Below are positions 20,019 through 42,823 of a stretch of 64,000 bases of DNA, in pieces. Below the pieces are notes generated by a model. The model saw nothing but the letters and a program-made list of their open reading frames with translations, ran no database searches and had not been told where the DNA came from. Every line of letters starts with the position of its first letter. Positions within the stretch are counted from its first letter, which is position 1. The DNA comes from a candidate division Kazan bacterium RIFCSPHIGHO2_01_FULL_44_14 (GTDB lineage Bacteria; Patescibacteriota; Kazan-3B-28): assembly GCA_001771185.1 (NCBI GenBank), contig METB01000001.1, forward strand, positions 186,631 through 250,630, given 5' to 3'. Made by a program: the position numbers and the translations under genes.

Positions 20019-20027
20019 TTGCTCCTT

Positions 20028-20059
20028 AAAACGCCCCTGGCCAGGGGCGTTTTTCTTTT
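20028..20059 (+). terminator. Rho-independent terminator.
   Basis: CGCCCCTGGCCAGGGGCG hairpin followed by TTTTTCTTTT. Confidence 0.8.
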
Positions 20060-20142
20060 ATTCAGACCTTACTTCCAACCTACCCCCACATCCAGATATC
20101 CTGTAAAATACTCTTGTCCCCACTACTTCCATAATTCCTCTC

Positions 20143-20252
20143 CCGTGTCATCCTGAACCCCTTCTCGTGTCATCCTGAACTTGTTTCAGGATCCCCGCCG
20201 GAGATGCTGAAATCCCTCGGCTGGTTCGGGACATCGTAAATTCAGCATGACG
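20143..20252. repeat. Hairpin repeat cluster (GTGTCATCCTGAAC x2 ... GTTTCAGGATCC ... GATGCTGAAATCCCTCGG...TTCAGCATGACG) just upstream of proS.
   Basis: Same family as 6153, 16683 and 17015. Its core also occurs inside argS at 25380-25510. Confidence 0.7.
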
Positions 20253-20262
20253 AATAAAAAAC

Positions 20263-21567
20263 ATGCGCTACACTCAATCTTTCCTCAAAACTTTCAAAGA
20301 TGCCCCGAAAGAGGCCGACCTAGTCAGTCACAAATATCTCTTGCGGGCTGGTTTCGTTACTCCCCTAGGCGCTGGCATCTATACTTACCTGCCAATGGGT
20401 TTTCGGGTAATGCGCAAAATTTACAATATTATCCAAGAAGAATTAAATAAAATCGGCGTAGAAGATATTTTGATGCCAGTCGTCCATCCGGCTCGGGTCT
20501 GGAAAGAAACCGGACGCTTCTTTGAGGTTGGCCCCGAACTCTGGAAAATTCAAAATCGAAGCGAAGAAGATTTTGTACTGGCAATGACTCACGAAGAAGT
20601 TATCACTGACGCGGCCAAAAAAATAATCCAGTCGTATAAAGATTTACCCAAATTGGTCGGTCAAATTCAGTTGAAGATTCGCGATGAAGCCAGACCGCGG
20701 GGTGGATTACTGCGATTGCGCGAATTTACAATGCAAGACGCTTATTCGTTTGATAAAGACGAACAAGAATTAGAGATGTCTTACCAAAAATTTATTGGCG
20801 CCTACAAAAAAATCTTCGACCGCGTTGGAGTTAAAACCGTCATCATCGAATCCGATACTGGTGCCATGGGTGGACTGGGGGCGCATGAATTTATGATGGT
20901 GGCTCCAACTGGAGAAGATTGGTTCATAGAAAGAACTTATGCAGACACCGGCAAAAAGGAGTATGTTAATGCGGAAAAAATTGGCGCCACCAAGGACATG
21001 CCTCTTGAACAGATTGAACAATTGGCTGCTAACAATTGGCTAAAAAGCGACCAAGGGTCAACCATTGAGATAATTCAAAAGGGCATCGAAGTCGGCAACA
21101 TCTTTAAACTGGGAACCAAATATTCTATTCCTCAAAAACTGTATTATTCGGACGAGAATAATCAACTCAAACCCGTGATTATGGGCAGTTATGGGATTGG
21201 CCTGGATCGGCTAATCGCCTCAATCATTGAAGCCAGTCACGATGATAAAGGCATGCTCTGGCCCAAATCTGTCGCCCCCTACCAAGTTCACCTTATCCAC
21301 ATCGGAGATGATAGGAAAGTTTTGGATTTAGCCAATGAGTTATACGAAAAACTTTGGGAAGCCGAAGTGGAAGTTTTTTATGATGACCGAGAAGATGTTT
21401 CTGTCGGTGAAAAGTTCGCCGATGCCGATCTTATCGGGATTCCTTACCGATTGGTGGTGAGCGATAAAAATCAAGACCAGGTAGAGTTCAAAAAGAGAGG
21501 TGCTGCCAAATCAATTAGGATAGACAAAGACAAGATTGTGCAGTTCTTGCAGCACACCTCTGACTAA
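20263..21567 (+). CDS. proS: Prolyl-tRNA synthetase (short form without the editing insertion).
   Basis: Class II motifs plus GIEVGNIFKLGTKYS and a C-terminal anticodon-binding domain; 434 aa. Confidence 0.9.
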   Translation: MRYTQSFLKTFKDAPKEADLVSHKYLLRAGFVTPLGAGIYTYLPMGFRVMRKIYNIIQEELNKIGVEDILMPVVHPARVWKETGRFFEVGPELWKIQNRSEEDFVLAMTHEEVITDAAKKIIQSYKDLPKLVGQIQLKIRDEARPRGGLLRLREFTMQDAYSFDKDEQELEMSYQKFIGAYKKIFDRVGVKTVIIESDTGAMGGLGAHEFMMVAPTGEDWFIERTYADTGKKEYVNAEKIGATKDMPLEQIEQLAANNWLKSDQGSTIEIIQKGIEVGNIFKLGTKYSIPQKLYYSDENNQLKPVIMGSYGIGLDRLIASIIEASHDDKGMLWPKSVAPYQVHLIHIGDDRKVLDLANELYEKLWEAEVEVFYDDREDVSVGEKFADADLIGIPYRLVVSDKNQDQVEFKKRGAAKSIRIDKDKIVQFLQHTSD

Positions 21568-21643
21568 TTTATCCCCATAAGTCAACATGCCCGATTGTCC
21601 GATAAACGGGGATTTTACTGTCCCAGAGTATCTTATTGTCCAT

Positions 21644-21672
21644 TGACAATCCGGACGATATGTGGTATAATG
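21644..21672 (+). promoter_or_regulatory. Near-perfect sigma70-type promoter (TTGACA, 17-bp spacer, TATAAT) upstream of the WxL-like gene.
   Basis: TTGACAATCCGGACGATATGTGGTATAAT read directly; an AAAGGA RBS lies before the ATG at 21707. Confidence 0.6.
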
Positions 21673-21706
21673 AAAGGAAAGTCGAAATAAAACCAAAACC
21701 AAAAGG

Positions 21707-22327
21707 ATGGAAGTCAAAGCCCACAAACTAATAGGGAGAGAGGTTGAAAAAGCCCGCCAAACTCTGGTGATGGGCGTAGTTTTGTTTGTCTTAGTAACCA
21801 TGTCAACTAGCGTTTTTCAAAGTGTGATGGCCGCTAACTCTGGTGCCACTACTGTTTCAATAAATGTTGACGCAGGTACACTTGACATCACCCAAGTCCC
21901 TTCTACTCTCAATTTTGGCAATGGCGTTCCTGGCGCTAACATCACCGGTAATACTGGCGCTACTTCTGGCAACGCCATTATTGTTAGCGACAGTCGGGGC
22001 ATAGAACCGGGCTGGACTTTGAAAAGTTATTTCAACGCCGATTGGAACGACGGATTTGGTACTACTATGACCATAGCTTCCAAAATGTATTGGTATGCCA
22101 ACAATATCAAAGTCAATAATAATGTCGGCACGGACGGTGATGTCCAGACCGGTGAAAATAATACATTCGCTGGAACTGGTTCAGACAATTCTCTGACTAT
22201 GGCCATTGCCGCCTCGGGAAATGGTGCTGGTATCTTTGACATCTACAACTTAAAGATGGAGTATGATATTCCGATTGATGCCACTCCCACCAGTTATACT
22301 GCTACAATGATTGTCACGGTTGTATAA
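21707..22327 (+). CDS. Secreted WxL-like surface protein (small).
   Basis: Signal anchor; VSDSRGIEPGWTLKSYF matches the V-D-RG-x3-GW-L core recalled from Firmicutes WxL domains. C-terminal beta-strand end ...KMEYDIPIDATPTSYTATMIVTVV is shared with 27808-28434 and 31641-34073. Confidence 0.55.
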   Translation: MEVKAHKLIGREVEKARQTLVMGVVLFVLVTMSTSVFQSVMAANSGATTVSINVDAGTLDITQVPSTLNFGNGVPGANITGNTGATSGNAIIVSDSRGIEPGWTLKSYFNADWNDGFGTTMTIASKMYWYANNIKVNNNVGTDGDVQTGENNTFAGTGSDNSLTMAIAASGNGAGIFDIYNLKMEYDIPIDATPTSYTATMIVTVV

Positions 22328-22436
22328 CAGCCCCAAGTTCTGGTCTCCTGCCCGCCTCAAAATCGGGTGTTTTTAGTTTAGCGCTTTAAAAAGTTTATAA
22401 TGAATCTGAATTATATTCGACTGGTTCTATCCATCA

Positions 22437-23831
22437 ATGAAATCTTTCTTTTGTAAAACAGTTGCTATCGTTATAATGCTAGTTCTCACACTGGCGTTAT
22501 CTTCCCTCCCCGCTTCGGCTATCGAAGTTGGGGGCATTGGAATTATTCCCGCCAATCCAGATCCAGCTAAGCCGTTAACCGTAAGCTGGTTTATTTATGA
22601 GTTTAACCCCGGTGCTACCATCAAAGATGCCGTGCTTTTACGGAACAATCGAAACGAAGAGTTAAAAGTTAAACTTGAGGCAGTCGATGGGAACATTGCT
22701 TCCGACGGTACTTTTGGTCTATTGGATGCCAAATCCTCCAGTGACCATGACATCGCGTCTTGGACCAAGCTGGAGACAACCGAGCTCACCCTTAAACCCC
22801 TGTCCAAGGTCACGGTACCCTTTACTATTACTATCCCCAAAGACGCCGAAGTCGGAGACCATATCGGAGGATTGGTTGTGTATCGAACAGATGATCGGCC
22901 TGACCAGGTTGCCCGCGCCGGCGGAGCACAGGTTAATATCTACACTCGAGTAGGAGCCAGAACCTATCTCACGGTTCTCGGCGATATCACCAGAGGGTTT
23001 AAGCTGATGAACCGCTACTTCTACGGGAGCGACAAAAAAATCGTTTTCCGTTTCCGAGCCAAGGATACTGGGAATGTACGAAATGCCCTAGAAGCCGATA
23101 TTAAGATATATAATCTCTTTGGCCTATTTGACGAGCAAGAAAAAATGGAGATTGGTCAGATTATGCCGGGGAAAGTTCTCTCAACCCGAGTTGTTTGGCC
23201 CGGTAAGGACCGCCCCCTGTTTGGACCATACCTTGCCATTATGAAGGTTCGTGATGCCTACGAACCTTTGAATCACAATGTCATTACCGCCACTCCGCCC
23301 AAAGAAATCACCACTTGGGTCGTTACTTTCTTTATTCCTTATATTGAAACCATCATCTTTGTATTACTGCTTTTCCTGGCTTGGTTTATTTACCAATTTG
23401 TAATCTGGCAACGATTAATCACCCTAGCTCGACAACCTCTAATTACTTATAAAATCAAAAAGGGCGATCATTTAGTAGATATTGCTAGTCACCGCCATGT
23501 TCCCTGGAAGTTAGTTGCCAAGATAAACGACATTCGACCGCCTTATGGTTTAGGCGCTATTAAACAAATATATATTCCTGACGCTAAGGGAGTAAAAATG
23601 ACTGACATCGCCATTCCTTCTTTCTTCACTTTTGTTAGTCGCCCTTTTGAAAAACTTCGCTTTAGAAAGCGAAATTACTACACTATCGTGATAGAGCGGG
23701 GCGATAAAAAGAAAGATGTTGAAAAATTTACCAAAATGACTTGGGTTGCTATCTCCAAGTATAATGGGCTAAGTCCCTCCTTCCGCCTAACCACGGGCAG
23801 AGAACTCAAAATCCCCCGTAATAAAAAATAA
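22437..23831 (+). CDS. DUF916/DUF3324-like cell-surface protein with a TM anchor and two C-terminal LysM-like repeats.
   Basis: Signal peptide, a beta-rich ectodomain (WFIYEFNPGATIKDAVLLRNNRNEELKV, ITIPKDAEVGDHIGGL), a TM helix (FFIPYIETIIFVLLLFLAWFIY), then YKIKKGDHLVDIA...KLVAKINDI (LysM-like) and a second TIVIERGDKKK..ELKIPR LysM-like unit. Paralogue of 28592-30007. Confidence 0.5.
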   Translation: MKSFFCKTVAIVIMLVLTLALSSLPASAIEVGGIGIIPANPDPAKPLTVSWFIYEFNPGATIKDAVLLRNNRNEELKVKLEAVDGNIASDGTFGLLDAKSSSDHDIASWTKLETTELTLKPLSKVTVPFTITIPKDAEVGDHIGGLVVYRTDDRPDQVARAGGAQVNIYTRVGARTYLTVLGDITRGFKLMNRYFYGSDKKIVFRFRAKDTGNVRNALEADIKIYNLFGLFDEQEKMEIGQIMPGKVLSTRVVWPGKDRPLFGPYLAIMKVRDAYEPLNHNVITATPPKEITTWVVTFFIPYIETIIFVLLLFLAWFIYQFVIWQRLITLARQPLITYKIKKGDHLVDIASHRHVPWKLVAKINDIRPPYGLGAIKQIYIPDAKGVKMTDIAIPSFFTFVSRPFEKLRFRKRNYYTIVIERGDKKKDVEKFTKMTWVAISKYNGLSPSFRLTTGRELKIPRNKK

Positions 23832-25808
23832 ATGCATCTATTAATTCAGATACAAAACCAGATCAAGCAGGCCATTACCAAAACCTGGCCAGATTTGTTG
23901 ATACCAATTATCGAGGTAACTCCGGCGCCCAATTCTGTTGGACAGCAGAACAATTTCGGTGACTATTCTTGCGCAGTGGCTCTTAATCTTGCTAAACAGT
24001 TACGAGCCAATCCGCTAGAGATTGCCGAACAACTAAAAAACGCTCTCGGTCAAGTTGAGTTGATTGCCGACACTACCGTAACCGCCCCCGGCTTTATTAA
24101 CTTCCATCTTGATTACCCCACTGTTGCCCAAATCATTCTTGCCCCCGCAACTCGCAACTCGCAACTTGCAACTCGTCCCCGCAACATTGTCATCGAACAC
24201 ACCTCTATCAATCCCAACAAAGCCGCGCATGTCGGACATTTGCGAAATGCCTGTTTAGGCGATTCGTTGGCACGGGTTTTGCGGACTCTTGGTCACCAAG
24301 TTGAAGTCCAAAATTACATTGACGATCTTGGACTGCAAGTCGCCGACAGCGTGGTGGCTTACGAAACTTTCGGCAAACTACCGGAAGGCGTTGCTTGGGA
24401 CAAATGGTTTTGGGAAGTTTACGCTAAAATTCAACCCAAATACGAAAGCCAACCAGAATTGATAGAACGGCGTGAGGCCATTCTTAAAGAAATGGAGCAG
24501 GGTCAAAATCAGACCGCTAAACGGATTGTTAAAGAAATGGTCTCGGCTCATCTGACCACTTTAAAACGATTCGGTATTGCCTACGACAATTTGGTTTATG
24601 AACATGACATTGTCGGTCATCACTTATGGGACAATGTTTTTACTGAACTAAAAAATAAACGACTAATCGTTCAACCCAAGTCCGGTAAGCACAAAGGGGC
24701 CTGGATCGTGAAATTTGGCACAACCGAAGATGAAGATAAAGTTCTAGTTCGAAGTAACAGTGTGCCAACCTATGTCGCCAAAGATCTGGCTTATGCCCTG
24801 TGGAAATTTGGACTGACTTCTACTCTGCCTGGCTATACCCGAAAGTTTTCTCAAGCCGATGAAGTGGTAAATGTAATTGATAATCGGCAGGCCTATCCTC
24901 AAGCCGTCATCAAACAAACCTTGTCCAAATTGGGTTATCAGTCGCAGGCCGATAACTATTTACATTTAAGTTACGGCGTAGTCAAATTGTCAGAGCGCGC
25001 CATGCAAACACTTGGCGAAACCACCACCGGCAAAACCACTTATTCCATGTCTGGTCGGGCTGGCATCGGTGTAATTGTGGACGACTTGTTTACTACCGTC
25101 ATGGAGGCGCAAATTAAAGCTCATCAAACAGAACCCCAAATTGCCGAACAAATAGCAGTGGGTTCGATTCGTTATTATATGCTTAAAACCCGGCCGGAAC
25201 GGGAAATTATTTTCGACTTCGATGAAGCCCTGAAAACTGACGGCAATACTGGAATTTATTTGCAATACGCCTACGCTCGCGCCAATAATATTCTAGCCAA
25301 GGTAGCCCCTTCCCTCGACGGACTCGGGACCTTGCTCACCCTCGGGGAATTAAATATTGTTCCCCCGACGAACGGAGGGGTCACCCCTCGTCATCCTGAA
25401 CTCTTATCCCCTGAGCTTGTCGAAGGGTCAGGATTTATCCCCTCTGTCATCCCGAGTGCAATCAAAGAATCTACTCTGTCTCCTCGTCATCCTGAATTTA
25501 TTTCAGGATCCAATACGAATAAAGCCATCTTCGATAATCTCAACCCGCAGGAAAAAAACTTAATCAAAGTTTTAACTGAATTTGATTTTAATTTATCTCT
25601 TTCGGCTGATGAATTAGACCCATCCAAACTTTGTGATTATGCCTATCAACTGGCCAATGCTTTCGCCAAATTCTATGAGACCAGCCCGGTGGTGGGGGCA
25701 AACACCGAAGCCCAAAAAGAGTTTAGAACCGGATTGGTCACAGTATATGCCAAAGTGCTATCAGAGGTTCTTTCACTACTAGGTATCCCTCAACTCGATC
25801 GGATTTAA
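23832..25808 (+). CDS. argS: Arginyl-tRNA synthetase carrying an in-frame insertion of about 55-60 aa derived from a repeat element.
   Basis: HVGH motif, DALR-type C-terminus (YAYQLANAFAKFYET); 658 aa against about 580 typical. The extra segment maps to 25330-25510. Confidence 0.9.
   Translation: MHLLIQIQNQIKQAITKTWPDLLIPIIEVTPAPNSVGQQNNFGDYSCAVALNLAKQLRANPLEIAEQLKNALGQVELIADTTVTAPGFINFHLDYPTVAQIILAPATRNSQLATRPRNIVIEHTSINPNKAAHVGHLRNACLGDSLARVLRTLGHQVEVQNYIDDLGLQVADSVVAYETFGKLPEGVAWDKWFWEVYAKIQPKYESQPELIERREAILKEMEQGQNQTAKRIVKEMVSAHLTTLKRFGIAYDNLVYEHDIVGHHLWDNVFTELKNKRLIVQPKSGKHKGAWIVKFGTTEDEDKVLVRSNSVPTYVAKDLAYALWKFGLTSTLPGYTRKFSQADEVVNVIDNRQAYPQAVIKQTLSKLGYQSQADNYLHLSYGVVKLSERAMQTLGETTTGKTTYSMSGRAGIGVIVDDLFTTVMEAQIKAHQTEPQIAEQIAVGSIRYYMLKTRPEREIIFDFDEALKTDGNTGIYLQYAYARANNILAKVAPSLDGLGTLLTLGELNIVPPTNGGVTPRHPELLSPELVEGSGFIPSVIPSAIKESTLSPRHPEFISGSNTNKAIFDNLNPQEKNLIKVLTEFDFNLSLSADELDPSKLCDYAYQLANAFAKFYETSPVVGANTEAQKEFRTGLVTVYAKVLSEVLSLLGIPQLDRI
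25330..25510 (+). repeat. In-frame repeat-element insertion inside argS (GGGACCTTGCTCACCCTCGGGGAA ... CGTCATCCTGAAC ... GGGTCAGGAT ... TGTCATCCCGAG ... CGTCATCCTGAATTTATTTCAGGATCC).
   Basis: The first 25 nt match the intergenic GGAACCTTGCTCACCCTTGGGGAAGC at 57818-57845. The GTCATCCTGAAC/GTTCAGGAT hairpins match 20143-20252. The stretch encodes ...GTLLTLGELNIVPPTNGGVTPRHPELLSPELVEGSGFIPSVIPSAIKESTLSPRHPEFISGS... where E. coli ArgRS has about 14 aa. Confidence 0.75.
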
Positions 25809-25853
25809 ATATTGCCATTACTTGGAATAAGATTGTGATAGCATAAAACCATC

Positions 25854-27392
25854 ATGCCAAAGCATGTCAAAACTCATCGAGCCAAGTTGGCCAGACCACA
25901 CTTTGGTTTACTAGAAGGCGGACTGGCAGTTTTGTTGTTCGCTTTTTGCACTCGCGCCTTATCTGACCCCGATTTTGGTTGGCATCTGCGTTCGGGAATG
26001 GATTTGTTGCGCAATCTAGCCATACCACGAGTTGATCCATATTCTTACACCGCTCCCACTTGGCCGTGGGTTAATCATGAATGGTTAGCTGATGGGATAA
26101 TGGCTGCCATTTACCAGACCCTGGGACCGCTGGCTCTCACCTTTTTGTTCGCACTGCTAATTGGCGGGGCCTTTATGTTGGCCGCTTCACTAACCAAGAT
26201 GGAGCTAAAATATAAACTCTTGGCCAGTTTCCTGGCAGTTCTGGCCGCTTTCCCAATCCTAGGGGTTCGGATGCAAATGATTACCTTGCTGGGGATGGCG
26301 ACGCTCTTGTGGCTACTCTATCGTTATCGGGATGGCCAACTCAAACACCTCTGGTGGGTCATCCCGCTGTTTTTGGTCTGGGCTAATTTGCACGGCGGAT
26401 TCATCATCGGCTTTGCCATTATAGCGGTTTGGTTGACTGGCGAAGGGGTTAAGTACCTCTTTGGACGAATTTGGCCCAAATTATATGCTCGACTCAAAAT
26501 AACTGAACCAGTATTCCGTCCGGTTCAGTTTGGACATTTGATTCTGGTTGGGCTTGGGTCGGCTTTGGCTACTTTAATCAACCCTTACGGTTGGGGACTC
26601 TATTACGATTTCTACAAACTATTTACCAATCCCCTCGCCATCAAAAGCATCTCCGAGTGGCAACCGGTAGTGCTAACTAATCTGACCGCCCAAAATTATG
26701 TCGTGTATGCATCCTTGCTGATTTTATTATTACTACTGACTTACCGCCGAATTGAACCGACTCGTTGGTTGTTAATAATAACCTTCTTTTGTATCTCGCT
26801 ATTGTACTGGCGCAATTTGCCGTTCTTTATGGTTATTAGTGTTGGGTTTTTGGCGGAAATCATTTACGAACACACTCATATTGTATTTGAGCAAACTTTT
26901 AAAAATCGGTGGGTAATTTTGATTACGGTTGGGCTAGTGATTATGGCTGTCTCACAACGAATGCTAAATGTAATCCCTCAAACTTTGGACCTGACTAATA
27001 CATTTCGGGCTGGCGGTTATCCAATTGACGCTATTAATTGGGCAAAAAAAAATCCAGACAAAATTGGGACCAAAATGTTTAACAATTACGGTCATGGTGG
27101 GTTTTTAATTTGGCAATTTCCAGAACAAAAGGTCTTCATTGATGGTCGAATGCCGTATTGGACTAATCAAGATAACCGATTACTGTTTGCTGACGAACAA
27201 CAGTCAATGTCAGCTCAACCTGGTAGTATTGAGTTTATGGCTCGTTATTATGGGGTCGACTGGGTCATCGCCCCAGTCGGTCGACCGCTGGATTTGGCCT
27301 TGAGCGGCCAAACCGCCTGGGTTCCCGTCTATCGAGACCGGGTCACTGCCATTTATCGCCAGAAATCGACTCCGACAGCAATTGCCCCTTAG
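25854..27392 (+). CDS. Large polytopic membrane protein, putative GT-C-fold glycosyltransferase (ArnT/PMT-like); paralogue of 30014-31528.
   Basis: About 11 TM helices, a DPDFGWHLRSG acidic motif in the first extracytoplasmic loop, and a conserved C-terminal soluble domain (GGFLIWQFPEQKVFIDGRMPYW). Function is inferred from topology and the DxD-like motif only. Confidence 0.4.
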   Translation: MPKHVKTHRAKLARPHFGLLEGGLAVLLFAFCTRALSDPDFGWHLRSGMDLLRNLAIPRVDPYSYTAPTWPWVNHEWLADGIMAAIYQTLGPLALTFLFALLIGGAFMLAASLTKMELKYKLLASFLAVLAAFPILGVRMQMITLLGMATLLWLLYRYRDGQLKHLWWVIPLFLVWANLHGGFIIGFAIIAVWLTGEGVKYLFGRIWPKLYARLKITEPVFRPVQFGHLILVGLGSALATLINPYGWGLYYDFYKLFTNPLAIKSISEWQPVVLTNLTAQNYVVYASLLILLLLLTYRRIEPTRWLLIITFFCISLLYWRNLPFFMVISVGFLAEIIYEHTHIVFEQTFKNRWVILITVGLVIMAVSQRMLNVIPQTLDLTNTFRAGGYPIDAINWAKKNPDKIGTKMFNNYGHGGFLIWQFPEQKVFIDGRMPYWTNQDNRLLFADEQQSMSAQPGSIEFMARYYGVDWVIAPVGRPLDLALSGQTAWVPVYRDRVTAIYRQKSTPTAIAP

Positions 27393-27483
27393 CTGGTCTT
27401 TATCTGGATTAATGGCCAATATCCGGCTTCCAGAGCCAAGTGTTTGACTATCTGTAGAACCATATTTTGATGCAAAAAACTAT

Positions 27484-27512
27484 TGACAGGCCCCAGGATA
27501 TATGCTACAATG
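27484..27512 (+). promoter_or_regulatory. Sigma70-like promoter (TTGACA, 17-bp spacer, TACAAT); a second candidate TTGCAT-17-TATATT lies at 27750-27778, upstream of the second WxL-like gene.
   Basis: TTGACAGGCCCCAGGATATATGCTACAAT read directly. Confidence 0.5.
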
Positions 27513-27807
27513 GAGTAATTAGTTCGGGTTAGAACCTAGCCGAAATCCCCAACTCCAGATACACTAAGAGGTCAAATCCAGGGGGTTCACCTCATCCTCA
27601 TATCGGCACCCGAAGCCCCTACTCATTAACCCACACCCACCAACCTCCAACTGAACCGCTGAATTGCCTACCGAAAAATTAAAAAATTGTTTATCAACAT
27701 TGTTCAAAGAAATATTTAAACAAATTACATAAAAAATAGTTGCATTAATATTAAAGTAATTCTATATTCAAAGTAAGTTGTTGCGCAAAAAGAAAATAAT
27801 AGTTGAG

Positions 27808-28434
27808 ATGAAAAATAAAGTTACAAAATTCATACAGTTGCAGGCGGAAAGAAACCGCCAGCTGTTAGTGTTGGGTGCGGTCTTGTTTGTGTCAGGCGTA
27901 ATGGCTAGTGGTGTGATTCAAATTACTCGAGCCGGCACAACTGACAACACTAATGTCAATATCGTGGTAACTGCTGGTTCATTATCTATCGCTATGGCCG
28001 ATGTTCAGTTTGATGTCGGGAGTGGCGGACCGGGTACAGCCAATGTTAACAGCATCGCCTGGGATGGGTTAGCCAACGCCATTACGATTGCGGATACGAC
28101 TGGTTCTGGTAGTGGTTGGAGTACTACTGCCTACTTTGTTGACAACTTTATCAGTGCTGGCGCCGAGGAGATGGCTATCGCTTCACTACTCAACTGGTAC
28201 CCAGGGGATATGACCATAGCCAATGGTACTGGCAACAATGCACATATTGGTCCCGGTGCAAACAGCGTCTTTGCTGGCACAGGGGCAGGCAATCCCCTAA
28301 CCTTTGCCGGCAACAATAGTGCTGGTACAGCCGCCGGTTCATTTAATATGCACAATGTCAAAATGGAATACGATATTCCGGTTTCTGCAGTCGCTACCTC
28401 CTACAGCGCCGACCTGCTCTTTACCATTGCCTAA
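27808..28434 (+). CDS. Secreted WxL-like surface protein (small), paralogue of 21707-22327.
   Basis: Signal anchor; IADTTGSGSGWSTTAYF; C-terminal ...KMEYDIPVSAVATSYSADLLFTIA. Start taken at the ATG at 27808 (the track offers TTG at 27778). Confidence 0.55.
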   Translation: MKNKVTKFIQLQAERNRQLLVLGAVLFVSGVMASGVIQITRAGTTDNTNVNIVVTAGSLSIAMADVQFDVGSGGPGTANVNSIAWDGLANAITIADTTGSGSGWSTTAYFVDNFISAGAEEMAIASLLNWYPGDMTIANGTGNNAHIGPGANSVFAGTGAGNPLTFAGNNSAGTAAGSFNMHNVKMEYDIPVSAVATSYSADLLFTIA

Positions 28435-28591
28435 TTTACTCTTTTCAACTTTCCACTAAACACTACCAACCTCGTCCCCGAGGTTGGTTTTTAAAATTCT
28501 TCACCAATCGTCAATCATTTTATTAATTGAATTGTTTACCATTTTGATATTCTTATTTTCTTTCTGCGTCTCCATATTGTAGAATAGGATA

Positions 28592-30007
28592 GTGAAACAA
28601 ACATTGTGCCAAATTCTGCCACTGACCCTAGGGATACTCTGGCTGTTCACTCTGATTCCATCTTCGGCGATAGGACTATCAAGCAATCGGGTTGGCCTGA
28701 GACCCGGAAACACTGAATCTGACTACACTCACTCCGGTGGGTGGTTGGTATATGAGGTTGACCCGGCCAAGGTCACCGAAATTAAGGATACCACCAAGAT
28801 TATGAACCTTAGCGACAACCAAGTTGTCGTTAAGCTTGAGGCAGTAGATGCCATCCTCGCTGGTGGTGGCGGTTTTGCTTTGTTGGATAATAAATCCGAG
28901 AATGAGAATTTAGGGAGTTGGGTGACACTTGAAGAAACCACCATCACTCTGCCACCCCAGTCAGACAAACTAGTTCACTTCACAATTACTATCCCTAAAA
29001 ATGCTGAAGTGGGCGACCACATTGGTGGTTTAACGATTCAAGAGATCGATAGCCCGGCTGATTCCACTCTCAAGTCCGGCGGTACCAGCGTACGCGTACG
29101 CACTCGAGTAGGTCTCCGGGTGTATTTAACTCTTCTGGGAGATATTGAACGCAATTTCAAAATTCGCGACCGTAAATTCTATGGTGTCGGCGACAAAATG
29201 ATGATTCAAACTACGGTTGAGAATCTGGGGAACATTCGCACCGACATGAGAATGGATGCCAGGATTTACGGCATCTTTGGCAGATACGATACAGCCGATA
29301 ATGTTAACTTCGGACAGACCTTCCCGAAAAAGACCGTTACCTATAATATTTCCTGGCCCGGGAAAAAGGATAGACCGCTATTCGGACCGTATCTGGCAAT
29401 CATGACTTTTCGCGATGCTTATGAACCAATGTCCAAAACCGTCGCGATGCCACCGGCGCCCAAACCGGTCACGGTTTGGGCAATTACCTTCTTTATCCCC
29501 TACACTCAAACCATCGTCGTACTAATTCTGGCTTTCTTGGTCTGGTTCTTTATGCAACTTCGGCGCTGGCGTAAGACCGTAGCCCTAGCTCGGATGCGAG
29601 TGGTAGCTTACAAAATTAAAAAAGGTGACCATTTAATGGATATCGCCGCTCACTATGAAATTGGCTGGAAGTTCTTAGCCCAACTAAACGACATTAAACC
29701 ACCTTACAGTTTGCATGGACTAACTACTCTATATGTACCAGACGCTCGGGGCAAGTTGCGCGATATCGCTTCGCCACAATTCTGGGGGTCCTTATTTGCT
29801 CCAATTATCGGCTGGCTGAAGAAAATATTTAAGCGGACCAAACCCTACTTCACTATCGTAATCGACAAAGGCGACACCAAGAAGAGCGTGGAGCAGTTCA
29901 CCAATCTGACTTGGACTGAATTAATGCGCTACAACCATCTTGCCTCAACTACTCGGCCAAAGACCGGGATGGAATTGAAAGTCCCCCGCCGTCGGCGCCA
30001 GAGGTAA
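28592..30007 (+). CDS. DUF916/DUF3324-like surface protein with a TM anchor and C-terminal LysM-like repeats; paralogue of 22437-23831.
   Basis: Signal peptide, ITIPKNAEVGDHIGGLTI, TM (FFIPYTQTIVVLILAFLVWFFM), YKIKKGDHLMDIAAHY...LAQLNDI, second unit TIVIDKGDTKKSVEQFT...ELKVPR. Confidence 0.5.
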   Translation: MKQTLCQILPLTLGILWLFTLIPSSAIGLSSNRVGLRPGNTESDYTHSGGWLVYEVDPAKVTEIKDTTKIMNLSDNQVVVKLEAVDAILAGGGGFALLDNKSENENLGSWVTLEETTITLPPQSDKLVHFTITIPKNAEVGDHIGGLTIQEIDSPADSTLKSGGTSVRVRTRVGLRVYLTLLGDIERNFKIRDRKFYGVGDKMMIQTTVENLGNIRTDMRMDARIYGIFGRYDTADNVNFGQTFPKKTVTYNISWPGKKDRPLFGPYLAIMTFRDAYEPMSKTVAMPPAPKPVTVWAITFFIPYTQTIVVLILAFLVWFFMQLRRWRKTVALARMRVVAYKIKKGDHLMDIAAHYEIGWKFLAQLNDIKPPYSLHGLTTLYVPDARGKLRDIASPQFWGSLFAPIIGWLKKIFKRTKPYFTIVIDKGDTKKSVEQFTNLTWTELMRYNHLASTTRPKTGMELKVPRRRRQR

Positions 30008-30013
30008 TCTCGA

Positions 30014-31528
30014 CTACTTTTTGGTATAGATTACCGCTAACTTGTCCTGATAGACCAACTGCCAGCCGGGCTGGTGGCTAAGCATATTGGCTAACGAAAA
30101 TCCAGGTGGAATTATCACCCAATCTACCCCATACCTCTCTTGAATCATTGAGACGGTGCCTGGTTGGCCGTCATCAATAGCCATTGCATCACGAAAGACG
30201 AATCGATTATCCAATTTCCAATAAGCCATTCGACCATCAATAAATACTTTTTGTTCAGGAAAACGCCAGACCAAGAATCCGCCCCAGCTGTAAGGATTAT
30301 ACATTCGAGTGCCAATCTGGTCTGGGTGGGCTTTGGCCCACTCCACCGCTTGGAGTGGGTAATTCCCCCAATGAATTAGGGTGTTCATGTCTTCATTGGC
30401 CAAGGCAAATTGCATCACTCCGGGCAAGATAGCCAACAGGCCCACTCCGGTGATTATGAGCGCCAACCAGCGCACCCTAATTAACCAGTTAGTCAGTCGT
30501 CTTATCCCTCCATCAATTGCTTCGGCAAACAACCCAGCGCTAATCAGTAAAAAGAGTTCCAGATTACGATCCGCCCACAGAGCCGAGACGAATAGGGCTA
30601 AAGCCAAAGCCCATCGGGTTGGTTCCACCTTTCGGTAGACAAATAAAAGGGCCACTATCATTAGTACTAAATAAACCACAAAAATCTGGTCCGAGAGACC
30701 ATGAAGTCCAAAATGACCCCACTCGGCTAAATGTTGCGCCACTAATGGTTCGGTTAGAGTTTTGTAAATATCAACATACAACTGTAATCCGTATGGATTA
30801 AGCAGAGTAATCACGCCAGACATCAAACCGACCCAGAAGAGATGCCCCAACTGTTTAGGACTAAGAGTGGGTTCGGCTTTGGATTGATACCGATACTGGA
30901 TACCGGCATACCATCGACTCTTCGACTTAATTAATTCGACCACAAACAGCAGCGCTAAAATGGCCAACCCAATCAAAAATCCACCATGCAGATTAGCCCA
31001 GAGCCAGAAGAATGGGATATGCCACCATAAATGTTTAAGTCGGCCACTACGGTAACGAACGAACGACCACAGCACGACTGCGGTCCCCAAATAAGACAGG
31101 ACTTGAATCCGCACCCCTCCTCGTGCCACATTGGCAAGAATTGCGAATCCTGCCACCAGCAGTTTGGATTTGGCACTTACCCTAGGTGACCAGGATGCGG
31201 CAATCAACAGAGCCAAAATCACTATCACAGCAAAAATAAAACTTAATCCGACTCCGCCTAAATGCTGGTAGACAAAGGCCACTAATCCATCACTTAGCCA
31301 CTCATGATTGACCCAGTGCCAGTCCGGCATGGTATAAGAGTAGGGATCGAGTTTGGGAACATGCCAAGTGCGGAGCAAATCTATGCCTGACTTCAGGTGC
31401 CAGCCAAAATCGGGATCTACCACCGGATAAGAGCCGAGCGCCACCACTACCATAAAAACCAATCCATCAATTGAATCGATTCGCCCCCACCACTGCTTTA
31501 TCCAGAGAATTGGGTGCCACTGTCTCAT
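30014..31528 (-). CDS. Large polytopic membrane protein, putative GT-C-like glycosyltransferase; paralogue of 25854-27392.
   Basis: VVDPDFGWHLKSGIDLLRTWHVPKLDPYSYTMPDWHWVNHEWLSDG aligns to the paralogue; C-terminal WGGFLVWRFPEQKVFIDGRMAYW. Confidence 0.4.
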   Translation of the reverse strand: MRQWHPILWIKQWWGRIDSIDGLVFMVVVALGSYPVVDPDFGWHLKSGIDLLRTWHVPKLDPYSYTMPDWHWVNHEWLSDGLVAFVYQHLGGVGLSFIFAVIVILALLIAASWSPRVSAKSKLLVAGFAILANVARGGVRIQVLSYLGTAVVLWSFVRYRSGRLKHLWWHIPFFWLWANLHGGFLIGLAILALLFVVELIKSKSRWYAGIQYRYQSKAEPTLSPKQLGHLFWVGLMSGVITLLNPYGLQLYVDIYKTLTEPLVAQHLAEWGHFGLHGLSDQIFVVYLVLMIVALLFVYRKVEPTRWALALALFVSALWADRNLELFLLISAGLFAEAIDGGIRRLTNWLIRVRWLALIITGVGLLAILPGVMQFALANEDMNTLIHWGNYPLQAVEWAKAHPDQIGTRMYNPYSWGGFLVWRFPEQKVFIDGRMAYWKLDNRFVFRDAMAIDDGQPGTVSMIQERYGVDWVIIPPGFSLANMLSHQPGWQLVYQDKLAVIYTKK

Positions 31529-31640
31529 GAACCCAGTTTAACAGAATGATTTCTACCAAACGAGCAGCCAACTTGCTTACAACAGGTGGCTGATTGACAG
31601 ATAAGGTTAGTTGCCCAGATAATAGAAACATAAAATCAAA

Positions 31641-34073
31641 GTGTGTAAAAATAAATTGATGCAATTTCTCAAACAGAATTTCTACCCTAGGCGTAAGAGT
31701 GGCAAACTGTTTTCGAAGTTGACCCACCGACAGAATATCTTGGCGCGAATTAGTTGGGCGCTGATTTTGGCAATCACTTTCACTAATATTCAATGGAATT
31801 TTAGTGATTTCGATATTCTGCCCGCGCCAACCCCAAAAGCCGAGGCCCAAGCCGCTGACCAGACCATTCTTTACTTTAAAAACGACACTGCCACTTCCAG
31901 CGCCTACTACGACATAACCGGCCCCAACAATGAAGAGAGTTCTTATACTGATGGGAACGCCGCCGACCCAACAGGCAAAACCACCGCTATAGCGATGCAC
32001 CCGATTTTTGGGGCGTTAATTCCTACCACTACCACTGACAATGTGAACCTCACCACCTCCCGCGCCAATATGAATGTCTGGTATCGTACCTTTATTATGC
32101 CGTTGGCAAATAATACGACATTTAATAGCACTACCACTTTTAACATCGGCGTCTCGGCTGATGAAAATAACGCCGCCGCCAACGCTGTCGTGGTGGGCTT
32201 TGTCTATGTCTATGATGGCGATGAGAATCCTTCGGCCAATGTCCAAACCCTGGCCGGCCCCACTGCCAGCTCGGAGGTCGGCACTGGTAACCAAGGGCTG
32301 GAGTGGGACATCGCCAATGGCCTTGGAGCCGGCTCCTACACCACCGACACGGACGACTATCTGGCAGTTGAACTGTGGGTGAACTTCCCCACTACCACCG
32401 CCCGCAATGTGACTCTCCGCTGGGGCGGAAATGTGGTGGTGGCAGCCGGCACTGGCAATATTGCCCCTGCTAGTCGAATTACCATCAATGGAACCAAGAT
32501 TGACACCTTTGACCCGCTATTTTTCAGGGAGACCAGCGCTGACCGACATCCCACCAATGAAACCACCACCGAGTTGACTCCAGAAGGAGGTACATTAGAC
32601 AGCCGCCGAATGGGGACGGTAGCCGGTAGTAGCGCCGAGACCAACGCCCAGGACACCACTGCTAGTGGCGAGTGGTTATTAAATGTGTTTACTTCACCAC
32701 CTCTGGCCGCCCAGACCATACCGGCCAGTAGCAACTTTATTATCAAGCTGGCGGGGAATGAAAGTAATGCCAGCGCTAACGCCCAATTTCGATATAGCAT
32801 TTACACTTGGGACGCCGACGACACGATTGGAGACACCATCGTGGGGTTTGCCAACAGCGGGGTTGAATGGCTCGCTGCTGATACTACCGACAACCAGGTT
32901 GAGATAGTGGTTAATAATGGGGCTGGGGCGATTACCATCTCGGATGGAGAACGGTTAGTGATAGAACTCAACACCACGGTTGTTAACTCTTATACCATTA
33001 CCCACTATTTTGGTGGCGCAAACACCCCAACCACTGCTGCTACCAACAGTGCCCTTATCCCCCCATTAAATTCCGATCGAAGGCCATTGCAGTATCTAGC
33101 CCAAGAATACGACCAAGCCAATTTTTGGTTTGATGAGGATGATGAAGATCACACCAGCAGTGATGTTCATAGTGCCTGGACCGATACAGCTGGATCAATT
33201 AACGAGAATCAATCGGGGACTTATACCGAAGATACTAATTTCCGGGTACGAATCCAAATCGTTAATCTGGGTGGCGAGACCGATACCCTGGCTCCAACTT
33301 TGTATTATTGCGATTTTTTCAGTTGCTCATATGCCCAGGTCACCGACAGTTCCACTGATGTACAAATAGCCCCCACTGCCAATATCGATCAAAATGATGT
33401 TACTACCAGACAGTTAACCGAACAAACTCCTGGCTGGGATTTTTCTGCCGGTCGGATGGTAGACACCTATGGAGTGGCTACCACGTCCGTATCGATGACT
33501 GCTTGGACCTACACCGAATATGAATGGTCGATTACAGCCATCAATCCAGGAATGTACAATCTTAAGGTCAGGGATGGGAGTACTGAACTTACCTATTACT
33601 CTTCAACCGCTTTTTTTACCGCCCAAGAGGGGTCTTCTCTCGGTGTGACTGCCCCGACTAATGTAACTCTGACCACTGGGAATCCCGGGACTACTTCCGA
33701 AACTACTTTTGGGGCTGGTGAACTGGTTGCGGTTACTTACGGCAGTGCTGGTTGGAGTTTGACGGTATCGTCTAGTGTCTTCACGGGATCTCCGACCTTG
33801 TATGTCATCCCGGCAGCTAATGTGAAACTCCGAACCGATGGAATACCACCAGCGGGTGGGAGTGATACTTACACGATCTGGTCAGGAGTTACTACTAATG
33901 TAAGTGAGCCGAGTGCCGGGACATACTCGCTCGATACCGCCAAAACCGTCGGGACCCGAAGTAGTGGCACTGGCGGAGATGTTACTAATGTTCGGCCAAC
34001 TATCCAAATCGTCATTCCGCCTGACGCAGTAGTAGAAGAATACACCGGCGATCTCACTTTCACAGTGGCCTAA
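31641..34073 (+). CDS. Large (810 aa) secreted Thr/Asn/Gly-rich surface protein with a WxL-like C-terminal end.
   Basis: N-terminal signal anchor; low-complexity beta-rich sequence; C-terminus ...IQIVIPPDAVVEEYTGDLTFTVA shares its ending with the two small WxL-like proteins. Confidence 0.55.
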   Translation: MCKNKLMQFLKQNFYPRRKSGKLFSKLTHRQNILARISWALILAITFTNIQWNFSDFDILPAPTPKAEAQAADQTILYFKNDTATSSAYYDITGPNNEESSYTDGNAADPTGKTTAIAMHPIFGALIPTTTTDNVNLTTSRANMNVWYRTFIMPLANNTTFNSTTTFNIGVSADENNAAANAVVVGFVYVYDGDENPSANVQTLAGPTASSEVGTGNQGLEWDIANGLGAGSYTTDTDDYLAVELWVNFPTTTARNVTLRWGGNVVVAAGTGNIAPASRITINGTKIDTFDPLFFRETSADRHPTNETTTELTPEGGTLDSRRMGTVAGSSAETNAQDTTASGEWLLNVFTSPPLAAQTIPASSNFIIKLAGNESNASANAQFRYSIYTWDADDTIGDTIVGFANSGVEWLAADTTDNQVEIVVNNGAGAITISDGERLVIELNTTVVNSYTITHYFGGANTPTTAATNSALIPPLNSDRRPLQYLAQEYDQANFWFDEDDEDHTSSDVHSAWTDTAGSINENQSGTYTEDTNFRVRIQIVNLGGETDTLAPTLYYCDFFSCSYAQVTDSSTDVQIAPTANIDQNDVTTRQLTEQTPGWDFSAGRMVDTYGVATTSVSMTAWTYTEYEWSITAINPGMYNLKVRDGSTELTYYSSTAFFTAQEGSSLGVTAPTNVTLTTGNPGTTSETTFGAGELVAVTYGSAGWSLTVSSSVFTGSPTLYVIPAANVKLRTDGIPPAGGSDTYTIWSGVTTNVSEPSAGTYSLDTAKTVGTRSSGTGGDVTNVRPTIQIVIPPDAVVEEYTGDLTFTVA

Positions 34074-34080
34074 CTCTACT

Positions 34081-34167
34081 AATCTCCGGCCAACCCTCCA
34101 GGCCCACATCCCCGCCAACCAGGTCTCAGGCAACCTCACGGGAACCTTCACCTTCACCGTCGTCTAG
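34081..34167 (+). pseudogene. Decayed duplicate of the last 28 codons of the 31641-34073 gene, placed 8 nt after its stop and in a different frame.
   Basis: Translates NLRPTLQAHIPANQVSGNLTGTFTFTVV* against the gene end NVRPTIQIVIPPDAVVEEYTGDLTFTVA*. Confidence 0.6.
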
Positions 34168-34182
34168 CCCCGCCCCATCCCC

Positions 34183-34217
34183 TGTATGACTTTATGCGGT
34201 CGCTTGAAGTCATACAT
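34183..34217. promoter_or_regulatory. Palindrome TGTATGACTT-N13-AAGTCATACA upstream of the PaaX-like regulator gene; candidate operator.
   Basis: Read directly. A near-identical, perfect copy lies at 34818-34853. Confidence 0.5.
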
Positions 34218-34239
34218 TTAATAGATATACAATAGAGCT

Positions 34240-34767
34240 GTGGTTAAGAAACGTTCAACGTTAACGAGGGATATTTTAGCTGCCGTAGCCGCTACGGGCA
34301 GTTTGATGGTGGTTGTTTTAACCGCTCCGAGCTTACCCCGCACACTGGGCCAATTACTTAATAAATATCAGCGCAATTCACTAGCGCCTTCTCGAATTAA
34401 ACAAAGATTGCGCGATCTCCAGCGTCAGCATTTGGTGGATATTAGCGAACAAGGCAACCGAACTAAAATTCGCCTCACCAAAGCCGGCCGAGTTCGAGTG
34501 CTTGAGTATGAGGCCGATGATATGGTCATTCCCAAACAGACCCCCTGGGACGGTCAATGGCGATATGTTATTTTTGATATCCCAGAAAAGAATAAATTGG
34601 CCCGCAATGTGTTCCGAGAAAAACTGCGGATGTTAGGATTTGTAAAGATTCAACAAAGCGTTTGGCGTCATAAATATCCCTGCAGTCCGGAAATTGAATT
34701 CCTCACTCATCTCTACCAAATTACTCGATATGTTAGTGTTCTGCAGGGACACTCTCTCGGGCAATAG
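34240..34767 (+). CDS. PaaX-family-like transcriptional regulator (N-terminal winged helix, C-terminal Cas2/PaaX_C-fold domain).
   Basis: C-terminal WDGQWRYVIFDIPEKNKLARNVFREKLRMLGFVKIQQSVW matches the PaaX_C / Cas2-like W-G-W...IPE...R...LR..L...GF pattern; the N-terminal 90 aa are basic with helix-turn-helix character. Confidence 0.5.
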   Translation: MVKKRSTLTRDILAAVAATGSLMVVVLTAPSLPRTLGQLLNKYQRNSLAPSRIKQRLRDLQRQHLVDISEQGNRTKIRLTKAGRVRVLEYEADDMVIPKQTPWDGQWRYVIFDIPEKNKLARNVFREKLRMLGFVKIQQSVWRHKYPCSPEIEFLTHLYQITRYVSVLQGHSLGQ

Positions 34768-34817
34768 TCACGCCCCCATCTCAATGATTTCAAATAGTCC
34801 AATCTTAATTTGACTAC

Positions 34818-34853
34818 CTGTATGACTTTAAGCGGCCGCATAAAGTCATACAG
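34818..34853. promoter_or_regulatory. Perfect palindrome CTGTATGACTTTA-AGCGGCCGCA-TAAAGTCATACAG between the regulator gene and capA; candidate operator.
   Basis: 13-bp perfect inverted arms with a 10-bp palindromic spacer, read directly. Confidence 0.55.
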
Positions 34854-34888
34854 TTTGGTGGGGATGTGGGTGTGATACAATCTAAGAC

Positions 34889-39592: not shown

Positions 39593-40183
39593 AATTTCTT
39601 TTATCTGTCATCCCCAACTTGATTGGGGATCCAGACAGAGACACAAACACTTTTCTGTTATTTTCTGGATTCCCTCCGCCAGTTGGCGGATTCGCGGGAA
39701 TGACAAAAAGTATAACTGGATGACGGACAAAATGGATTGAGCGCAGAGTACCCGCGACGGATTCTGCCGTTCGGCAGAACTTTCAGCCCACCTTGTCCTG
39801 CTGGACAGCAGGACGGTCCAACCCCGAAGGGGCCCTGGAATCTTTGGCGCATAATCCCCGCGACGACCTACTTTTGCAGGACCTTGCGGTCCAACTATCA
39901 TCGGCGCTGAGGAGCTTAACTGCTCTGTTCGAGATGGGAAGAGGTGTGACCTCCTCGCTATCATCACGGAGATTATAAGCCAAAGAATCTTACTAGGGTG
40001 CTGTTCGAGATGGGAATTCTGCTGTACAGCAGAATCCGGTATCATCACGAGCCTGCCCGCCAAAGTGATATCTATATTTAAAGTGGCTAATGACCTATTT
40101 TGAATGAGATTGAACGACGGCGGGAACTCTAAACTCAATGGGATAGATCCTGAAACAAGTTCAGGATGACATTTGTAAAAGTA

Positions 40184-41659: not shown

Positions 41660-41672
41660 CCCAGCTCGCGTG

Positions 41673-41704
<32 letters not shown>

Positions 41705-41718
41705 AACCTGCTCCAGCT

Positions 41719-41749
<31 letters not shown>

Positions 41750-41781
41750 AAACCGCTTCGTCGATATGGACTCTTGGAAGC

Positions 41782-41813
<32 letters not shown>

Positions 41814-42578: not shown

Positions 42579-42598
42579 ACCCGACAAGGAATTTCGCT

Positions 42599-42787: not shown

Positions 42788-42823
<36 letters not shown>

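Follow-up and report, generated by a model that had tools for sequence, protein, structure and literature searches.

We describe a locus of ~12 kb in the ~0.7-Mb genome of candidate division Kazan bacterium RIFCSPHIGHO2_01_FULL_44_14 (Patescibacteriota) whose genes appear to encode a WxL-type cell-surface complex. It lies in a stretch of 64,000 nt (contig METB01000001.1 of assembly GCA_001771185.1, positions 186,631 to 250,630 of the forward strand), hereafter the window; all coordinates are positions in this window, with the strand in brackets. We use short names for the genes: a1 and a2 for small WxL-like proteins, b1 and b2 for membrane proteins resembling WxL-interacting proteins (WxLIP), c1 and c2 for proteins with a GT-C glycosyltransferase fold, and Large for a protein of 810 amino acids (aa). 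The first group consists of a1 (21707-22327 (+), 206 aa), b1 (22437-23831 (+), 464 aa), argS (23832-25808 (+); Pfam Arg_tRNA_synt_N, tRNA-synt_1d and DALR_1) and c1 (25854-27392 (+), 512 aa, oligosaccharyltransferase (OST)-like and 100% identical to OGB73453.1, locus tag A3K24_01150). It is followed by a2 (27808-28434 (+), 208 aa, with an alternative TTG start at 27778), b2 (28592-30007 (+), 471 aa, with two LysM repeats), an inverted second OST-like gene c2 (30014-31528 (-), 504 aa) and Large (31641-34073 (+)). Every open reading frame (ORF) of the original prediction is present at the coordinates it gave; what it omitted is that c2 lies on the minus strand, convergent with b2. Its proposal of two cassettes built of the same parts is borne out by pairwise similarities far beyond chance, with 38% identity between a1 and a2 (E 5e-42), 44% between b1 and b2 (E 6e-146) and 45% between c1 and c2 (E 4e-141). 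Two WxLIP-like, two small and one large WxL-type gene lie within 12.4 kb. The argS gene separates b1 from c1. Its ATG follows the stop codon of b1 without a gap, which suggests that a1-b1-argS-c1 are transcribed together and translationally coupled.

Both b proteins matched PF06030 (DUF916 / WxLIP_PGBD) above the cut-off of 27.3 bits (b1 40.2, b2 37.9) and LysM (PF01476) in two stretches each, above the cut-off of 20.9 (b1 30.7, b2 49.6). In their database relatives, DUF916 was present in 61/61 and LysM in 45/61. A profile of b matched EfmWxLIP1 in the PDB (E 2.4e-8), which was also its best PDB fold match. The AlphaFold2 model of b1 (pLDDT 92) shows a signal-like helix, two beta-sandwiches (residues 34-180 and 188-299), a transmembrane (TM) helix of 30 residues (302-331; 23340-23429 (+)) and a tail with two LysM units (23439-23816 (+)). 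The modelled units have the beta-alpha-alpha-beta order expected of the LysM fold, as E335-339/H346-352/H357-363/E377-381 in LysM1 (335-381) and E414-418/H425-432/H436-442/E456-460 in LysM2 (414-460). Pfam and the model agree on the predicted plan of a signal peptide, a beta-rich ectodomain, one TM helix and two LysM-like repeats beyond the membrane. The DUF916 part of a predicted DUF916/DUF3324 arrangement holds above the Pfam cut-off; what stands for DUF3324 is a beta-sandwich in the right place, assigned by position and modelled fold. As judged from profiles and model, b is a WxLIP with two immunoglobulin (Ig)-like ectodomains and a single TM helix at the membrane.

Lysines and arginines are distributed unevenly around this helix. 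Next to the hydropathy segment of b1 (residues 291-328) there is one such residue before and four after, and among 38 family members the mean count in 15 residues is 0.87 before the TM helix and 3.13 after it, with a mean net charge of +19 for the tail. Since b carries a signal peptide and one TM helix and conforms to the positive-inside rule, the LysM repeats are predicted to be cytoplasmic. The TM and LysM region gave a weak NCBIfam match to YneA (E 0.005). YneA also has a LysM next to a TM helix; there it lies outside the cell, whereas the LysM repeats of b are predicted to be cytoplasmic and are fused to a WxLIP ectodomain. A precedent for an intracellular LysM is E. coli Kbp/YgaU, a cytoplasmic BON-LysM protein. 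The b orthologue on a 626-kb Patescibacteria contig (locus L003, 9986-11590; also L009) has 535 aa and a third LysM repeat.

For the a proteins, WxL (PF13731) was the sole Pfam family matched, by 11 of 29 members at E<0.01 (best 2.7e-10). This agrees with the WxL-like nature that had been predicted, although a1 itself scored 21.2 bits, below the gathering cut-off of 25; the orthologue from locus L034 scored 26.9 bits, above it. The protein a2 belongs to the same family by its match to the family hidden Markov model (HMM; E 1e-71). WxL was again the sole Pfam match of a-like ORFs 5' of DUF916 genes in other lineages, and was above the cut-off for that of Gordoniibacillus. With the a profile, a word-indexed homologue search that returned nine proteins, and within which statements on distribution hold, reached a 'WxL domain-containing protein' of Spirilliplanes (E 8e-7), and UniRef gives a1 and a2 this same name. 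The family is small, with 31 representatives among 1.84 billion proteins.

The predicted V-D-x-RG-x3-GW-L core is intact in a1, where the motif D-x-RG-x3-GW-x-L reads SDSRGIEPGWTL (GWTL), and degenerate in a2, where it is weakened to ADTTGSGSGWST (GWST). A C-terminal strand KMEYDIP...TSY, said to be common to a1 and a2, was found in both translations; the C-terminal strand of a1 is YTATMIVTVV. Across the family the first Trp-x-Leu motif is conserved. An N-terminal hydrophobic segment, read from the sequence as signal-like or as an anchor, precedes a WxL-like domain that makes up the whole mature protein. By its sequence, a is probably a divergent WxL domain protein, secreted or N-terminally anchored.

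Large had no match to any Pfam family, its N-terminal ~660 residues included. This N-terminal part is Thr/Asn-rich and variable, and is followed by a C-terminal WxL-like domain (residues ~666-810; 33636-34070 (+)) that contains GSAGWSLT and ends in YTGDLTFTVA. Pairwise comparison of Large with a gave a weak match (E 0.002 over 53 aa), the a-family HMM had no match in Large at E<=1, and a profile comparison with the single Large sequence reached a probability of 77%. When 13 orthologous C-terminal domains were aligned with the a family by hhalign, the probability rose to 94.5% (E 8.3e-8, 140 columns), with GW-S-L of the Large type aligned to GW-x-L of a and the terminal strands aligned to each other. 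The claim that Large ends in the same domain and strand as a can be upheld on this score, and their homology, inferred from sequence, is solid once profiles are used. As would be expected of secreted WxL proteins, the domain lies at the C-terminus in Large and spans the mature protein in a. Full-length homologues of Large were found only at L013, L010 and L019. Its C-terminal module of ~150 residues ends proteins of 359-1130 aa encoded directly 3' of b at 12 related loci, and the N-terminal part of such proteins ranges from 200 to ~980 aa across Kazan-like species. Judged on these comparisons, Large is probably a 'large WxL protein' in which a fast-evolving N-terminal region sits on a C-terminal WxL-like domain.

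Neither c1 nor c2 matched a Pfam or NCBIfam family at E<=1, Pfam STT3 (PF02516) included, and a profile of 80 homologues matched no PDB chain at E<=10. The predicted GT-C-like polytopic nature of c was confirmed by a confident model (pLDDT 94, pTM 0.91) and its GT-C fold matches. In a Foldseek search with this model, ranks 1-12 were all OST catalytic subunits (E 7e-6 to 7e-5, TM-score 0.50-0.58), so that the closest structural relatives of the modelled c are protein-glycosylating OSTs and not lipid or polysaccharide GT-C enzymes. The c1 protein has ~11 TM helices and a C-terminal globular domain of the OST type. Because ~11 TM segments were counted and the N-terminus is basic, the DPD loop and the C-terminal domain of the model are placed outside the membrane. 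The motif DPDFGWHL(R/K)SG, which had been noted before, is present in both proteins and in c1 forms part of the first external loop (DPDFGWHLRSG, residues 38-48; 25965-25997 (+)). Among 80 homologues its residues D40, G42, W43 and G48 do not vary. As in GT-C enzymes generally, this loop is presumed to be the catalytic acidic loop; the modelled multi-span fold and the conserved acidic residue in the first external loop agree with GT-C membership. The 80-sequence alignment has 40 invariant columns, all of which c2 keeps, and the invariant residues include R139, W176/N178/H180, E268/W269 and Y412/G415/G416/D430/G431/R432.

In OSTs the motif WWDYG binds the +2 Ser/Thr of the sequon. At the presumed equivalent site, judged from OST sequences rather than a structural alignment, c has N410-x-Y412-x-x-G415-G416 (FNNYGHGG in c1, YNPYSWGG in c2), and Trp-Trp-Asp is not conserved. 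For this reason c is classed as a GT-C protein with an OST-like fold and not as a member of the OST family. It shares with STT3, AglB and PglB (GT66) the invariant Asp in the first external loop, and its consensus ..NDYG..(12 residues)..KVFIDGR resembles the stretch WWDYG...K-T-L-I-D-G-G of PglB. Unlike these enzymes, c lacks a sequence match to the family in the searches given above, has ~11 TM helices where they have 13, is only 512 aa long, and has homologues in Nitrospirota in unrelated contexts. UniRef names c a 'Glycosyltransferase RgtA/B/C/D-like domain-containing protein', and its family is large (973 matches). At two Nitrospira loci (L005 3945-10385 and L006 6276-10507) genes for a NodU/CmcH-type carbamoyltransferase and a GT2 glycosyltransferase stand on either side of a c homologue, which points to a conserved setting in glycan modification for the Pfam-less GT-C family that differs from the one in the window.

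To place the locus among its relatives, 40 loci were compared that came from looking up the exact proteins and from scanning a single genome of each species, with genes assigned by HMM mapping. The neighbourhood is conserved in related genomes, as had been proposed. A cassette a-c-b-Large on one strand is complete at L003/L009, L008, L010, L012-L015, L017 and L018 and partial at L011 and L016; L020 has a, c and b on one strand with no Large gene detected at the locus, L019 has a-b-Large without c, and the order in Kazan GW2011 (L001/L007) is a-c-b-a-b ... Large. The order a-c-b(-Large) thus recurs in at least 10 distinct species-level genomes, whose cassette proteins are just ~45-60% identical and in some of which the end of one of the genes c and b runs a few bases into the other. 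Judged against these genomes, the gene order in the window is a derived rearrangement of an ancestral a-c-b-Large cassette. In rough neighbor-joining trees, a1, b1 and c1 group with the first cassette of Kazan GW2011 while c2 forms a deep branch outside the main clade, near the L020 copy, and the cassette duplication is on this evidence old. A recent tandem duplication was considered and is ruled out by the 38-45% identity of the paralogues and these tree positions. The L003 genome has a single cassette, placed between proS and argS; in the window the cassette is flanked or interrupted by these two synthetase genes.

Beyond this clade, an a-like ORF directly 5' of a DUF916 gene was found at 20 further loci in Patescibacteria, Actinomycetota and a Firmicute. 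This second tier comprises other Patescibacteria, 13 Actinomycetota loci, one metagenome-assembled genome labelled Burkholderiales and the Firmicute Gordoniibacillus; most of its loci have the a-like ORF directly 5' of b, without c or LysM, and one actinomycete locus (L031) has b alone. The statement that such pairs are not known outside Firmicutes therefore had to be dropped, since they occur in Actinomycetota and other Patescibacteria and NCBI and UniRef already label such proteins. A LysM tail on b was found only at c-carrying Kazan-like loci, plus one Peribacteria b with a single LysM. Within the loci compared, the a-b pairing is an ancient core that is not confined to Firmicutes, and one clade has gained the GT-C gene and the LysM tail jointly. 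Peribacteria loci L022 (2644-13535) and L033 (113-7136) have DUF916-type genes in tandem arrays of four or five, encoding 224-711 aa, beside a single weak a-like gene, a different expansion of the same system.

Clusters of small WxL, WxLIP (DUF916-DUF3324-TM) and large WxL genes are described from Lactobacillales and Listeria (Siezen 2006, PMC1534035; Hassan et al. 2023, PMC10599100). By the published definition a WxL cluster holds at least one WxLIP and at least two WxL genes within four genes (PMC10599100), and the locus falls within it provided that a and Large count as WxL. It has the same three protein types as those clusters and, like them, the small WxL gene directly 5' of the DUF916 gene; b shares with a classical WxLIP the signal peptide, DUF916, the second beta-sandwich and the TM helix, with EfmWxLIP1 as best PDB fold, and Large has its WxL-like domain at the extreme C-terminus behind a variable N-terminal region, as published large WxL proteins do. 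In contrast to the Lactobacillales clusters, the host is a Patescibacterium with a genome of ~0.7 Mb, the WxL domains are very divergent, with sub-threshold Pfam scores and x-F-T-V in place of the second motif, a GT-C gene belongs to the Kazan cassette and there is no LPxTG protein. Whereas a classical WxLIP ends at the TM helix (PMC10599100), b runs on for 136-145 aa in a basic tail with two, sometimes three, LysM repeats, and its DUF3324 is not detectable by sequence. A published survey places 91%, not 100%, of WxL sequences in Firmicutes (PMC9772566). The pairs in Actinomycetota and other Patescibacteria, which we know from database annotations only (for example 'WxL protein peptidoglycan domain-containing protein' of Catellatospora and Micromonospora), consist of the same a-b pair and are detectable with Kazan-derived HMMs; unlike the Kazan cassette they have neither LysM tail nor GT-C, and their a-like protein is often larger (430-525 aa).

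Because of the homology and the conserved architecture, a WxL-type surface complex that displays the variable Large protein is the best supported explanation of the locus. We put a probability of about 75% on its being the Patescibacterial (Kazan) version of the WxL cell-surface protein cluster, with an OST-like GT-C protein and a LysM-tailed WxLIP. If the complex works as in Enterococcus and Lactobacillus, DUF916 of b would dock the WxL domains of a and Large non-covalently at the wall or membrane surface, and this docking would display the variable N-terminal part of Large as an adhesin or other interaction surface. The c protein would use a polyprenyl-(pyro)phosphate-linked sugar at the outer face and would glycosylate the WxL proteins or a wall polymer bound by them. 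The basic two-LysM tail of b, predicted to be cytoplasmic, might have N-acetylglucosamine (GlcNAc)-containing lipid-linked precursors as its ligand, which is a guess. In the window this cassette would have been anciently duplicated and rearranged, with consensus promoters before a1, a2 and Large. The locus may be the attachment apparatus of this Kazan bacterium.

A donor for c could come from lipid-linked glycan assembly genes 13-19 kb 5' of the locus. These include Bac_transf (7481-8878) and two GT4 genes (6299-7441 and 4938-6119), and belong to a set at 2939-8878 (-) with DUF4012, the two GT4 and the Bac_transf initiating phosphoglycosyl transferase; a GT2 gene (15576-16400 (-)) and a Wzy_C-TPR gene (12889-14745 (+)) are also nearby. 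A Wzy_C (O-antigen ligase/polymerase-like)-TPR gene lies near the cassette in L003 as well.

A number of findings weigh against this interpretation. On the WxL side, a2 has no Pfam match of its own and a1 scores below the cut-off; DUF3324 has no sequence match in b1, b2 or 61 relatives; and in place of the second Trp-x-Leu motif there is a terminal strand of the form Y-x-x-x-(L/I)-x-(F/L)-T-(I/V), for example with (I/L)-x-F-T-(V/I), so that where a dual Trp-x-Leu is expected (PMC10599100) a1 has MIVTVV, a2 LLFTIA and Large LTFTVA. On the side of the additions, the cytoplasmic position of the LysM repeats is predicted solely from the three topology features named above, and the co-occurrence of LysM tail and GT-C comes from one clade, where shared ancestry confounds it. 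In the window argS parts c1 from a1-b1 and c2 is inverted, and the a-b pairs of other phyla have no c. Because c homologues of ~40% identity in Nitrospirota lie beside GT2 and carbamoyltransferase genes with no WxL genes, the enzyme family is not intrinsically tied to WxL. N-glycosylation sequons show no enrichment in the window (a1 2 vs 3.6 expected, a2 2 vs 3.2, Large 15 vs 12.8) and are only marginally enriched in the clade (z 1.1 for a, z 2.4 for the N-terminal parts of the large proteins).

There is one position-specific sequon signal. N-V-(S/T) at HMM position 54 occurs in 10/14 a proteins from c-containing loci vs 0/14 from loci without c, and a sequon at position 138 in 8/14 vs 1/14; this contrast sets one clade against the rest, and a1 has neither sequon. 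Because the LysM tail strictly co-occurs with c, a glycan-related role of the tail suggests itself, and we speculate that it binds, for example, a GlcNAc-containing lipid-linked precursor. Taken further, c would be a new, WWDYG-less branch of OSTs that glycosylates the WxL proteins at the outer face in a self-contained glyco-adhesin, and the LysM tail would bind GlcNAc-containing precursors, lipid II or lipid-linked oligosaccharide, on the inner leaflet, which would couple assembly of the complex to glycan supply. This extended version fits the N-V-(S/T) and N-x-T-G sequons that a has in this clade specifically; we nevertheless regard it as improbable in its entirety.

An alternative leaves WxL and WxLIP as they are and takes c as a hitch-hiker, a general envelope-glycan transferase that would glycosylate wall polysaccharide or lipid in a streamlined genome, carried along in a frozen gene order, with the LysM tail as an unrelated addition in the clade. 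The size of the c family, its Nitrospirota members beside GT2 and carbamoyltransferase genes without WxL, the c-less a-b pairs of all other phyla, the detached c1 and inverted c2 of the window, the a-b-Large locus L019 without c, the unconvincing enrichment of sequons and the lack in c of the canonical OST peptide-binding motif WWDYG all speak for this. It is harder to reconcile with the position of c, which in at least 10 species-level genomes of that divergence is placed between a and b in the same orientation and either overlaps its neighbours slightly or leaves small gaps, or with two c copies kept beside two a-b pairs in so small a genome; the closest structural relatives of c, moreover, glycosylate proteins, and N-V-(S/T) follows the presence of c. 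We treat this alternative as tentative and hold it at clearly less than even odds.

The remaining alternatives concern the WxL assignment and the assembly of the complex. If b were a PapD-type chaperone, it would complete a and a tip adhesin Large by donor-strand complementation in a fibre or pilus-like assembly; for Enterococcus a DUF916 beta-hairpin is indeed predicted to insert into WxL (Hassan et al., PMC10599100), an arrangement that PDB 9i25 may show, and the C-terminal strand common to a and Large could take part in such an exchange. The top match of b is WxLIP itself, however, b is anchored in the membrane and stoichiometric, the cassette contains neither an usher nor a sortase-like gene, and the PapD-like similarity may reflect just a generic tandem Ig arrangement, all of which makes a chaperoned fibre distinctly unlikely. 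It would be more radical to regard the WxL similarity as spurious, with a and the C-terminal domain of Large as an unrelated beta-rich secreted family beside a DUF916 gene. Apart from the Pfam scores of a1 and a2 and the loss of the second motif, what favours this is that a PDB search with the a profile returned no solved WxL structure, just spurious claudin matches to the signal-peptide region. Against it stand WxL as the sole Pfam family of a, the WxL matches of DUF916-upstream ORFs in four other lineages, one above the cut-off, the link to the Spirilliplanes WxL protein, the agreement of UniRef/InterPro-based naming and the WxLIP identity of the partner b, and we consider it very unlikely indeed.

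If the locus is a WxL-type surface complex, it bears on a group whose surfaces are little understood. Patescibacteria (Candidate Phyla Radiation, CPR) are mostly uncultured, ultra-small and probably host-attached, and how they build their surface and attach is poorly known. A conserved four-gene core in at least 10 Kazan-like species together with a variable Large N-terminus is the pattern expected of an attachment or interaction organelle. On these results WxL/WxLIP is no speciality of Lactobacillales; the module is ancient and belongs to monoderm lineages at large (Firmicutes, Actinomycetota and Patescibacteria). The locus also points to a Pfam-less GT-C family whose closest structural relatives are oligosaccharyltransferases, and to a concrete, testable oddity, a surface-protein anchor whose LysM repeats are predicted to face the cytoplasm. 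Were c and the LysM tail to act as in the extended version above, protein glycosylation and a cytoplasmic precursor-sensing LysM in the CPR would both serve a hypervariable adhesin mediating host attachment.

In the literature we found no paper linking WxL, DUF916 or LysM with Patescibacteria or Kazan, or oligosaccharyltransferases with CPR surfaces, and no description of Patescibacteria WxL clusters, a LysM-tailed WxLIP or a GT-C gene within WxL cassettes. The claim that the LysM fusion and the co-inherited GT-C gene are undescribed stands in this sense; the individual proteins had already been annotated automatically, with UniRef labels of WxL, LysM and GT-C-like type and the NCBI label 'DUF916 domain-containing protein [Patescibacteria group bacterium]'. 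The system is accordingly not categorically new, and the mechanism proposed for the GT-C and LysM additions is hypothetical; its interest, which is moderate, lies in the surface biology of the CPR and in how OST-like enzymes evolved.

Predicted promoters, read as consensus matches only, precede the WxL-type genes. As had been proposed for both a genes, a sigma70-like site lies 5' of a1 (21643-21671 (+); TTGACA-17-TATAAT, 12/12, with an extended -10 TG) and of a2 (27483-27511 (+); TTGACA-17-TACAAT, 11/12, with TG); a further one lies 5' of Large (31594-31623 (+); TTGACA-18-GATAAT, 11/12). These are the three best sigma70-like matches in 20000-35000, each directly 5' of a WxL-type gene, and the rough chance expectation for matches of at least 11/12 in a 15-kb stretch is ~0.2. 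The total of promoter-like sites in 20000-35000 was not above that of shuffled sequence (23 found vs 24.1 expected). The a2 leader (~290 nt) had no excess RNA stability over shuffles (z +0.91), and an Rfam scan gave no match inside the locus.

The locus is flanked by proS (20263-21567) on one side and by PaaX_M-like, PGA_cap and comM-like genes on the other. The gene directly 3' of Large (34240-34767 (+)) encodes a small protein that matches the PaaX central Cas2-like domain (PF20803, 5.9e-20) and could be a regulator of the locus; the same PaaX-type gene follows the cassette in Kazan GW2011 (L001 15642-16100), before PGA_cap and ComM-like genes. The ArgRS encoded within the locus has an insertion of ~100 aa (residues ~465-563) between its catalytic and DALR domains that is Pro/Ser/Glu-rich and repeats the motif SPRHPE(L/F). 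A 268-aa ORF at 19212-20018 (+), between tRNA-Pro and proS, belongs to no Pfam family.

Further along the window, the 23S rRNA gene (41576-45394 (-)) spans 3819 nt, compared with a 2925-nt model, and contains a group I intron at 42300-42588 (-). A LAGLIDADG endonuclease ORF (41048-41536 (-)) lies between the 23S gene and the 5S gene (39855-39971 (-)), which are ~1.6 kb apart, and Kazan GW2011 has a LAGLIDADG gene at the syntenic position (L001 20539-21087). The class A RNase P RNA (10083-10733 (+)) is 651 nt long, with large insertions relative to a model of 367 positions. The 23S intron, the long RNase P RNA and the LAGLIDADG ORF beside the rRNA genes are in keeping with a Patescibacteria (CPR) genome.

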